Origin: a virus
Lineage: Duplodnaviria; Heunggongvirae; Uroviricota; Caudoviricetes
DNA: 35,309 nt
Reading direction: 5' to 3' (one strand)
Virus record (IMG/VR): IMGVR_UViG_2526164613_000023
Of this stretch, positions 26,346-32,078 are shown one piece after another (position 1 is the first letter of the stretch; each line of letters starts with the position of its first letter). The notes below the pieces were generated by a model. That model saw nothing but the letters and a program-made list of their open reading frames with translations, ran no database searches and was not told the origin of the DNA. Position numbers and translations under genes: made by a program.

Positions 26346-26840
26346 TCAGAGCAGCCCCTTAACTGAGCTGGCCGCGCTATTAAGGGATGATGTCACCTTA
26401 TCTTTGAAGCCGGACAGCATATCGCTGAACGATGAGGATTGCAGGCGCTCCCGCAAATCCTCATCACAGCGTTCAAGAGTCAGTGAAAATTCTATCTTTT
26501 TCGCCTTACCGTAGCGATCAAACTCGGAGCGGGTCGTATTCGTTCCGGTCAGGACATACATGCCGTAAATCTGCCCGACGCCATCAATCAAAGGCCAAGG
26601 ACGTCCTGTATATGCCTGCGTGGTCAACAACGACAGCGACACTTCGCCACCAGTAATCTCAGGATAAAGAACACCAGAAAGAACGATGCGATCATCACCT
26701 GCACCGATATACTGCCAGCTTGCTGAACGGTTAACGCGTTCATTTTTCACATGTCGCCAGCTTTTGTTTTGCTGTAGCTGCTGATGCGGCAACGTGCGCA
26801 GCTCAAAAACAAACATGCCGTAGATCATCATCATGGCCAT
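26346..26840 (-). CDS. U: Tail protein, P2 gpU-like
   Basis: 164 aa (P2 U about 159 aa), immediately downstream of the tape-measure gene on the minus strand. Confidence 0.75.
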   Translation of the reverse strand: MAMMMIYGMFVFELRTLPHQQLQQNKSWRHVKNERVNRSASWQYIGAGDDRIVLSGVLYPEITGGEVSLSLLTTQAYTGRPWPLIDGVGQIYGMYVLTGTNTTRSEFDRYGKAKKIEFSLTLERCDEDLRERLQSSSFSDMLSGFKDKVTSSLNSAASSVKGLL

Positions 26841-26846
26841 GACTCC

Positions 26847-30737: not shown

Positions 30738-31921
30738 CAGGCACCTCCCAGCACCGCAAATGCGGGACCAAAGAATTCATCAGTAAACGACTGGTAAAGC
30801 TCCATGTCTTCCAGTGGAGGAACGGGCGTATATTTGTAGCGAATACGCACACGCCCCTGACGTAAATTCGTGGTGCTGTTATCCACGATGTCATACCAGC
30901 ACTCCGCGCCAATCAGTTTCCCGGCAGTAACCAGTGAATCCAGTTTTGCCCTGATGGCACTGATAACATCCTTCACGTTCGCAGGTGTCAGTGGACTGTC
31001 GATGGTTTCAAACTGCGCTTCCGCAATTGAATCAGCCAGCACCTGTGCGGTTCGGGTATACACCTCAAAGATGTAGGCGTTCGTTTCCGGTGTGCGGTTG
31101 CCCCAGAAGCGGAACCCGTTGCGACGAATAATGGTCGTGATTTCTTTGTTGTTGAGGCTGTTGGCATCACTGTCTTCGGCCTGCAACGACCAGAACACAT
31201 GCCTCGACATCCCAAGCACATTTTTAACCGGAACGTTGGACAGCGATTTGTGCCAGCCCTGCTCATGGTCAATGTACGCACGAAGGCCGCACGCATAAGC
31301 AGGCGCGGGGAACGTTTCGTTTTTGCCACTTTTCGGGTTGTAGGCGATGAAGTCAGGCCATAAGAGCATCACCTCACGTTCGTTGAATTTCTGGCGGTAG
31401 GTAATCGCCTCAGCCATCGTGTTACAACCATGACATGTGGCATACACAAACGCGCGCAGTTTACCCGCAATCACGCACAGGGATTTTGTTACCGCCTCCG
31501 TGTCCAGCTCCGGCGCGGCCAGAATACGCGGACGGTATCCGATGCTTTCATCCTGCTCTGCAACAAGCAGCGCATACATCCCCGTATAGCTGCCGTCATC
31601 CTCAGAACCACCGATAACCAGTTGATCCTGCGTCTTTCCGTCTTCTTCTTTGTGTTCAGCCACGCGAACGACGATCACCTTTGTGCTCACCTGGTCTGCG
31701 ATGGCCTTAAGCGCACGATAAAGCGTCCCCGTTGTCCCGCATTTTCCCAGCACATCATTGACGCGGGTCAGCAGTGTGGGCTTGTTCAGCGGGAACAGCT
31801 TCGCGTCCGCATCATCCGCCGTTGCCACGATACCGATAACGCTGGAATCAACATCGTTAATCGCTGTTACCAGGTCGGTATTTTCCGTAACACGGGCACC
31901 ATGAAAACGAGTTTCACTCAT
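30737..31921 (-). CDS. FI: Tail sheath protein, P2 gpFI-like
   Basis: 394 aa (P2 FI about 396 aa); first gene of the minus-strand tail operon. Confidence 0.9.
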   Translation of the reverse strand: MSETRFHGARVTENTDLVTAINDVDSSVIGIVATADDADAKLFPLNKPTLLTRVNDVLGKCGTTGTLYRALKAIADQVSTKVIVVRVAEHKEEDGKTQDQLVIGGSEDDGSYTGMYALLVAEQDESIGYRPRILAAPELDTEAVTKSLCVIAGKLRAFVYATCHGCNTMAEAITYRQKFNEREVMLLWPDFIAYNPKSGKNETFPAPAYACGLRAYIDHEQGWHKSLSNVPVKNVLGMSRHVFWSLQAEDSDANSLNNKEITTIIRRNGFRFWGNRTPETNAYIFEVYTRTAQVLADSIAEAQFETIDSPLTPANVKDVISAIRAKLDSLVTAGKLIGAECWYDIVDNSTTNLRQGRVRIRYKYTPVPPLEDMELYQSFTDEFFGPAFAVLGGA

Positions 31922-32078
31922 AGCTTCAGCCCCTTGTATCCGTTAAATGATTCGGCAACAATCATCACCCACCACGCGCGTAATCTCACCCCTGCGCCAT
32001 TCTCCCGCCACGGCGACAACAAAAAGCAGTAACCCCCTCCGCACGCACATGCGACCATGCCGCACAGGGAGGGAGCAG

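Follow-up and report, generated by a model that had tools for sequence, protein, structure and literature searches.

Reversed FI-U tail genes and a separate gene D are the fixed order of a large P88-type group of P2-like prophages, with a predicted one-box late promoter between FI and D

The tail genes FI, FII, E/E', T and U of the prophage described here run in the opposite direction to those of P2, and gene D stands apart from them. This arrangement is ordinary and already known, being the fixed and ancient order of a large catalogued P2-like group and no new rearrangement; its known status rests on deposited and classified genomes rather than on a published description, and discussion of the inversion was not found in the text of the papers on P88, phiSM and the P2 hotspots. 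The reading that we favour, to which we give a probability of roughly four in five as a whole, is that the block was inverted in place in an ancestral phage and that FI and D are now transcribed from promoters sharing one activator box. The proposed one-box bidirectional FI/D late promoter may be the only new part, and would be a modest variation on the known PP/PO design of P2.

The DNA analysed, a stretch of 35,309 nucleotides referred to here as the window, is a complete P2-like prophage with int (1121-2263, minus strand) at one end and a hok/gef gene at the right end. It carries the late gene set of the Peduoviridae (Q, P, O, N, M, L, R, S, V, W, J, I, H, FI, FII, E, T, U and D), and each protein tested gave a significant blastp match to its P2 counterpart (26-62% identity) as well as Pfam matches. 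By gene content the window is a member of the Peduoviridae, and by gene order and about 72% matched identity it is P88-like (Xuanwuvirus). The ICTV genus criterion is a nucleotide similarity of about 70% or more across the genome to the type phage; blastn with P88 aligned 75% of the window, with an identity-weighted coverage of about 0.72, a value that is borderline for the genus and measured from the window side only. The stretch 26340-33189 is 94.8% identical to P88, homology beginning at 26340, and the FI/D junction within it is 98.6% identical. From 26340 to the window end, leaving aside an insertion between D and ogr, identity to deposited phages including P88, 500465-2 (Gemsvirus) and Citrobacter phage phiSM is 92-97%, and the FI/D junction is 100% identical to that of a prophage in the complete chromosome of E. 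coli O55:H7 DEC5B. P88 (Xuanwuvirus P88, NC_026014) and its relatives Citrobacter phage phiSM, P884B11 and PhiR44_2 share with the window the leftward order U-T-E'-E-FII-FI and a rightward D, and their FI/D spacer is near-identical to that of the window, with an identical activator box. P88 forms plaques and has a contractile tail (PMC5285337), and its close relative phiSM is an active temperate phage (PMC6456863); since these active phages have the same order, the arrangement is functional and not an assembly error.

The inverted operon is led by FI, encoding the tail sheath (30737-31921, minus strand; three Pfam sheath domains), followed on the same strand by FII, encoding the tail tube (30225-30737; Pfam Phage_tube, 1.3e-47), E, a tail assembly chaperone (29805-30170; phrog_103 tail protein, 2.3e-35; 32% identity to P2 gpE), T, the tape measure protein (26847-29654; Pfam PhageMin_Tail, 1.6e-56), and, as its final gene, the tail protein gene U (26346-26840; Pfam Phage_P2_GpU, 1.5e-38; 46% identity to P2 gpU). 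The end coordinate of T, 29654, is taken from the P88 and PGAP annotations, the longest ORF reaching 29690. A P2-type slippery sequence, T TTT TTG, lies in the E frame at 29859-29853, and the -1 frame, its offset computed from the ORFs, is open from there to 29641, giving a predicted frameshift extension E' (29641-29859, minus strand); P2 is annotated with E+E' as a -1 frameshift, and a 'GpE family' ORF is annotated at the E'-equivalent place in DEC5B and P88. Both H (21928-24087) and the tail-fibre assembly gene tfa (24989-25573) lie on the plus strand and converge with U, and in blastn comparison with P2, H aligned in the same orientation and FI in reverse. A preliminary description of this DNA had placed FI-U on the minus strand, flipped relative to P2 and convergent with H-G, with D and ogr on the plus strand and D separate; ORFs and family matches support each of these placements, as does the blastn orientation for the flip itself. 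It had also seen no flanking inverted repeats, and an inverted-repeat search agreed, finding none that bracket 26346-31921; the best pairs were at most 30 nt long, about 70-93% complementary and unrelated to the breakpoints.

The same description implied that this orientation is rare, which does not hold. Of 5426 complete E. coli genomes, 1301 (about a quarter) carry an intact FI/D junction with an identity of 95% or more. A synthetic U-D junction in P2 order, assembled from the U and D sequences of this lineage itself, was found in none of the 5426, its two halves being present in 1415; the orientation is therefore fixed and not switchable. The same gene order is found in four other genera, represented by 500465-2 (Gemsvirus), phiT5282H (Novemvirus), 3LV2017 (Reginaelenavirus) and ST16-OXA48phi5.4 (Reipivirus), all of which resemble the window in having a divergent FI/D junction in which the box and the spacing of the -10 elements are conserved; their cargo and hosts differ from those of the window. 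In the last three the junction is only 66-72% identical to that of the window at the nucleotide level, and a more sensitive search was used to find it intact there. Beyond these phages, a gpD alignment was run against one genome per bacterial species and the best 80 of 423 loci were each classified by tblastn, a sample that favours relatives of the query and is no measure of how frequent each arrangement is in the Peduoviridae as a whole. Among these best 80 loci, 57 had the P88-type order (gpD at least 61% identical to that of the window), 22 had the P2-type order (gpD at most 53% identical) and one was disrupted and not classified by identity. Every intact locus in this sample with a gpD identity of at least 61% was P88-type (57/57), and these were spread over about 25 genera of Enterobacterales, with hosts including Salmonella, Klebsiella, Enterobacter, Serratia, Erwinia, Pantoea, Pectobacterium, Xenorhabdus, Photorhabdus, Providencia, Morganella and Yersinia. 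The orientation is thus the common arrangement of a well-described P2-like subgroup, and the feature is not novel. The earlier view that it is bound to a lineage, with no recent repeat-mediated flip, agrees with the fixed orientation and the lack of repeats.

Between the convergent G and U ends lies a variable cargo slot (25580-26345, minus strand). In the window it holds, on its G side, a strong bidirectional terminator with a 13-bp stem (25580-25609) and an EpsC/WcaB-like O-acetyltransferase gene (25617-26222, minus strand) with its own promoter (26269-26241); this gene is on the same strand as U and downstream of it, as had been described. In the interval from G to U, P88 carries an invertase and an invertible tail-fibre cassette, where the window has a Macro-domain ORF, a lambda-like tfa and the O-acetyltransferase. 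The Macro-domain ORF lies after H and before the tail-fibre assembly gene. A 355-aa ORF absent from P88 is inserted between D and ogr, and comparison with Pfam, PHROGs, PADLOC, NCBIfam and PDB sequences gave no match for it. The endolysin gene of the window contains a premature stop (nonsense) codon, unlike that of P88, and the early-region cargo of the two differs. Rfam and tRNA scans gave nothing relevant.

The distribution of the two orders points to their history. When gpD sequences were placed in a neighbour-joining tree with phiCTX as the root, the 61 P88-type ones all fell in a single clade that contained no P2-type sequence, the evidence for the clade being this one protein and a tree without bootstrap support. 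Because the P88-type loci group in this way, a single old inversion is likely. The P2 order is kept in phiCTX and in P2-like phages of Burkholderia (PMC3091744), which indicates that it is the ancestral one. An ancestor of a large enterobacterial clade would thus have undergone inversion, in place, of a segment containing the FI promoter together with FI-FII-E/E'-T-U, with one breakpoint just upstream of the activator box of that promoter and the other at the U/D boundary, and the new order would then have become fixed. The F operon would since have run leftward, converging on H-G, with the variable cargo slot between the operon ends. D would have been severed from the operon, losing its overlap with the U stop codon and now using a ribosome-binding site of its own.

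Other histories of the block fit the evidence less well. Mis-orientation of the block in the window sequence, an assembly artefact that had been raised as a possible refutation, is hardly credible: the junction is identical in the complete DEC5B chromosome, is present in the 1301 complete genomes, and recurs in independently sequenced phages including P88, whose sequence is virion-derived. A recent or still active inversion, in which the segment would be switched by a Hin/Gin-type invertase beside U or through flanking repeats, is suggested by the DNA invertase that P88 and 500465-2 encode adjoining U, and action of such an enzyme at a secondary site could explain the original event. Programmed invertible segments are well known in the G segment of Mu with Gin, the C segment of P1 with Cin, and Salmonella Hin. 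The window resembles these in that a reversed block adjoins tail-fibre genes and in that its relatives carry a Hin/Gin-type invertase beside the block, but it has neither flanking recombination repeats nor an invertase gene, and the orientation was the same in every genome examined. The block accordingly does not qualify as a programmed invertible segment: no repeats bracket it, and among the 5426 E. coli genomes the observed junction was found in 1301 and the opposite one in 0. The constancy of the orientation in about 25 genera, among loci whose gpD identity falls as low as 61%, and the evolution at D of its own ribosome-binding site and a predicted -10 element also make a recent or active inversion highly improbable. 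Finally, the FI-U block could have been imported already reversed from a distant phage by module exchange, a possibility suggested by the mosaic nature of phage genomes and by the clear exchange of the adjacent tail-fibre region. However, the block proteins are as distant from their P2 counterparts (32-46% identity by blastp) as the flanking late proteins (26-62%), and the identities of FI and D drop in step across the 57 loci. Both observations favour inversion in place, and import of the module is improbable.

D itself encodes the baseplate hub gpD ('late control D'; 32079-33179, plus strand; Pfam Phage_GPD; 49% identity to P2 gpD). Its start at 32079, as also given in the earlier reading, was set by alignment with the gpD proteins of P2, phiT5282H, 3LV2017 and ST16-OXA48phi5.4 and by a GGGAGGGA ribosome-binding site; the longest ORF, starting at 31947, was rejected on the same grounds. 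In DEC5B, D was called short by PGAP (264 aa); since the compared part of the sequence does not differ, the short call is probably an oddity of the annotation. Downstream, ogr (34718-34978, plus strand) encodes an Ogr/Delta-like zinc-finger late activator, with weak matches to phrog_603 and to NCBIfam PRK09678, below the curated cut-off, and an ogr/Delta-like call by PGAP. Its four cysteines are arranged as CX2C-X24-CX4C, where P2 has X22, and a sigma70-like promoter (34659-34687) precedes it.

Ogr-dependent late promoters of the P2 PP/PO type have a TGT-N12-ACA dyad about 55 nt upstream of the transcription start, and their activation needs both Ogr binding and contact with the alpha subunit of RNA polymerase. 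The FI/D spacer of the window (31922-32078; 157 bp) had been proposed as a divergent late-promoter region, and it has this appearance, with one Ogr-type box and, mirrored about it, weak -10 elements. The box, a predicted Ogr/Delta-type activator site of the form TCT-N12-ACA continuing ACAACAAAAAGC and without assigned strand, lies at 32001-32018 with its centre at 32009.5 (TCT at 32001-32003, ACA at 32016-32018), and is the only T[GC]T-N12-ACA in the spacer. An exact search of the window for TGT-N12-ACA gave five matches, fewer than expected by chance and none in a late intergenic region; the TCT variant was recognised only after the spacers of five genera were aligned, which revealed a conserved T(G/C)T-N12-ACAACAAAAA block. 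The left half of the box is TGT in many related loci, while the window and the viable P88 have TCT and not the canonical TGT.

On the FI side of the box, a predicted leftward promoter, PF, has the -10 element GATGAT (31961-31966, minus strand) and a predicted start near 31954, and on the other side its mirror image, a predicted rightward D promoter, PD, has the -10 element GACCAT (32053-32058, plus strand) and a predicted start near 32065, leaving D a predicted leader of only about 14 nt. Each predicted start lies 55.5 nt from the centre of the box, which puts 111 nt between the two, and the start-to-start distance about the single PP/PO box of P2 is equal to this. In 51 of 61 P88-type loci, each flank of the box has a hexamer of the form nAnnnT at 43.5-48.5 nt from the centre, where 0.02 would be expected from shuffling. 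This result is to be read with the relatedness of the 61 loci, by which part of the box and -10 conservation is shared ancestry, and with the looseness of the -10 rule, which asks for A at position 2 and T at position 6; most of the loci outside the 51 have a one-base offset. A generic scan of 31922-32078 for sigma70 promoters and terminators gave nothing useful, with no sigma70-like promoter called, as expected if the promoters are activator-dependent.

A second box of the same type, TCT-N12-ACA(ACAAAAGC), is predicted in the divergent P/O spacer (13580-13597, without assigned strand), where it has the form TCT-N12-ACAACAAAAGC, as in the FI/D box. Exact ACAACAAAA occurs only three times in the window, and two of these occurrences are in the P/O and FI/D spacers. 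The two boxes agree within each genome checked, being TCT/TCT in the window, P88 and phiT5282H and TGT/TGT in 3LV2017, which thus has TGT in both boxes where the window has TCT. In the P2 annotation, one activator site (3057-3087) serves PP and PO, whose mapped starts are at 3016 and 3127, and the box TGT-N12-CCA is centred at 3071.5, 55.5 nt from each. A whole-genome scan with the same rule recovered this annotated P2 box (3063), as well as the P/O and FI/D boxes in the window and in P88; four additional matches in the window, corresponding to three distinct sites of which one is palindromic and matched on both strands, are apparently due to chance. Between O and H, the only rightward boxes with a -10 element that were found are that of P/O and one within H. 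In P2 there is a distinct promoter, PV, whereas no PV-like box was detected upstream of V in the window, and S and V are almost contiguous. Because of this lack of a further rightward box and the near contiguity of S and V, the genes from O to G look like one operon.

Taken together, the sequence evidence suggests that D probably shares the activator site of the FI promoter. D would have a promoter of its own using the same dyad-symmetric Ogr box from the other side, mirroring P2 PP/PO with its one box centred between two mapped starts, and the late genes would be driven from two boxes and four promoters (P/O and FI/D). On balance we lean towards the more specific view that the inversion placed the dyad-symmetric Ogr box of the FI promoter upstream of D, and that D then gained a mirror -10 element, creating a second PP/PO-like bidirectional late promoter, so that the P88 clade would have two boxes and four promoters as against the three boxes of P2. 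No description of such a capture of the activator site at FI/D was found in the literature searched. The transcription starts, the Ogr dependence and the use of the box in both directions are predictions. D could instead have an independent promoter unconnected with the activator box of FI, either a weak constitutive one or one with an unrecognised second activator site. The predicted -10 element GACCAT is weak and the leader short, and the box of the window is asymmetric, with TCT distal to D and the long conserved ACAACAAAAA proximal to it, all of which would suit this alternative. Against it, the spacer has the one box and no called sigma70-like promoter, the mirror -10 spacing is retained in 51 of 61 loci despite divergence of the surrounding sequence, and a layout of one box and two promoters is annotated for PP/PO of P2 and has been proposed, as a shared site, for Smp131 (PMC3931495); an independent promoter is unlikely on this evidence.

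The comparison with P2 and other P2-like phages places the shared-box arrangement in context. The gene families of the P2 F operon (PF-FI-FII-E/E'-T-U-D) are all common to the window, including the E/E' frameshift site, and both phages have an Ogr-type activator and boxes of the TGT-N12-ACA type. The difference is one of order: the P2 genes FI to D point the same way as H-G and belong to a single operon, the stop codon of U overlapping the start of D, whereas in the window FI-U is inverted and D is separate. TGT-N12-ACA is the consensus of Ogr-dependent promoters, of which P2 has four late ones, and the P2-like Stenotrophomonas phage Smp131 has kept TGT-N12-ACA promoters and a shared PP'/PO' site although some of its late genes have changed operon (PMC3931495). 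Smp131 is therefore a precedent for rearranged late operons in P2-like phages; it differs from the window in that members were exchanged between the V and F operons and all tail genes remain co-directional.

These results are mainly a correction, in that the gene order of P2 does not serve as a model for every P2-like prophage. A reversed FI-U block and a separate D are to be expected, in annotation and in prophage calling, in the P88 clade, in which the convergent G and U ends enclose a terminator-bounded slot with varying cargo. If the shared-box model is true, the FI/D region would be a natural example of a gene capturing the activator site of another through inversion, and the conserved one-box spacer offers a simple and testable instance of a rearrangement that leaves one activator site serving both directions.

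The window carries two putative activator boxes of the T(G/C)T-N12-ACA type, one in the divergent spacer between P and O (13580-13597) and one in the spacer between the leftward sheath gene FI and the rightward D (32001-32018). Among the compared sequences, boxes were located in L090 (at 13278 and 32003), L091 (at 6355), and L004 (at 6652). Within each genome checked, the left half of the box (TGT or TCT) matched between the two spacers, being TCT in both for the window, P88, and phiT5282H, and TGT in both for 3LV2017. This agreement, in a comparison that spans only three lineages, hints that the P/O and FI/D boxes co-evolve with the Ogr of their own genome. 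A plus-strand tCACG motif is conserved in the FI/D spacer across diverged loci; in the window it lies at about 31986-31990, about 26-30 nt to the left of the ACA half-site, and falls where the predicted FI promoter would have its -35 region. Several of the predicted -10 elements have GC-rich CGCGCG runs immediately upstream, and this holds for phiCTX too, a phage with the P2 gene order.

The M15-peptidase endolysin gene of the window (17548-17940, plus strand) has a GAA to TAA nonsense change at codon 41 relative to P88, placing a stop codon at 17668-17670, and the endolysin gene of the E. coli O55:H7 DEC5B prophage is annotated by PGAP as a pseudogene; the window copy of the prophage is probably lysis-defective. 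The PGAP annotation of DEC5B also renders D (L007 21036-21880, corresponding to window 32335-33179) as a 264-aa fragment with a small antisense pseudogene. In the window, however D is called, its reading frame is uninterrupted, and DEC5B matches the window exactly across the compared part (through window 32700); the short DEC5B call looks like an annotation artefact. Another compared contig, L008 (NZ_JBQPOM010000071.1), is labelled as Vagococcus sp., a Gram-positive genus, and contains a P88-type locus; its gpD is 99% identical to that of the window's E. coli prophage, which suggests that the assembly is contaminated or mislabelled.

Additional genes are found at several positions. Between D and ogr, a gap of about 100 bp or less in most P88-type loci, the window has a 355-aa ORF (33449-34516, minus strand) of low G+C content (about 37%) that is absent from P88. 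No family was found for it in Pfam, PHROGs, PADLOC, NCBIfam, or PDB sequences, and it may be cargo in a third variable slot. A 268-aa ORF (9302-10108, minus strand) in the A-Q hotspot gives a match at 2.6e-35 to PDC-M04A, a candidate defence family in PADLOC; it is adjoined by ParM-like partition genes (7795-8754) that are likewise present in P88.

Within the tail-fibre operon is a 300-aa Macro-domain ORF (24084-24986, plus strand; Pfam Macro, 8e-19; phrog_2613), with a partial match to phrog_14717 ("tail protein") and a weak one to PADLOC DarG (0.0044). Its start overlaps the stop codon of H (ATGA), and the tail-fibre assembly gene begins 3 nt past its end. The Macro domain is an ADP-ribose-binding or deacetylase fold, here placed among tail-fibre genes. 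The sole Rfam match at the gathering threshold, IS009 (RF02111; 25338-25536, plus strand), falls within the assembly gene.

An EpsC/WcaB-like polysaccharide O-acetyltransferase is encoded at 25617-26222 (minus strand), again with a low G+C content (about 37%), and has its own predicted promoter (TTGAAT-17-TATAAT, 26269-26241, minus strand) and, beside it, a bidirectional terminator with a 13-bp stem (25580-25609). The pairing of tfa with an acetyltransferase recurs in the unrelated phages JL22 and vB_EcoM-Ro157c2YLVW. The O-acetyltransferase is probably a lysogenic-conversion gene.
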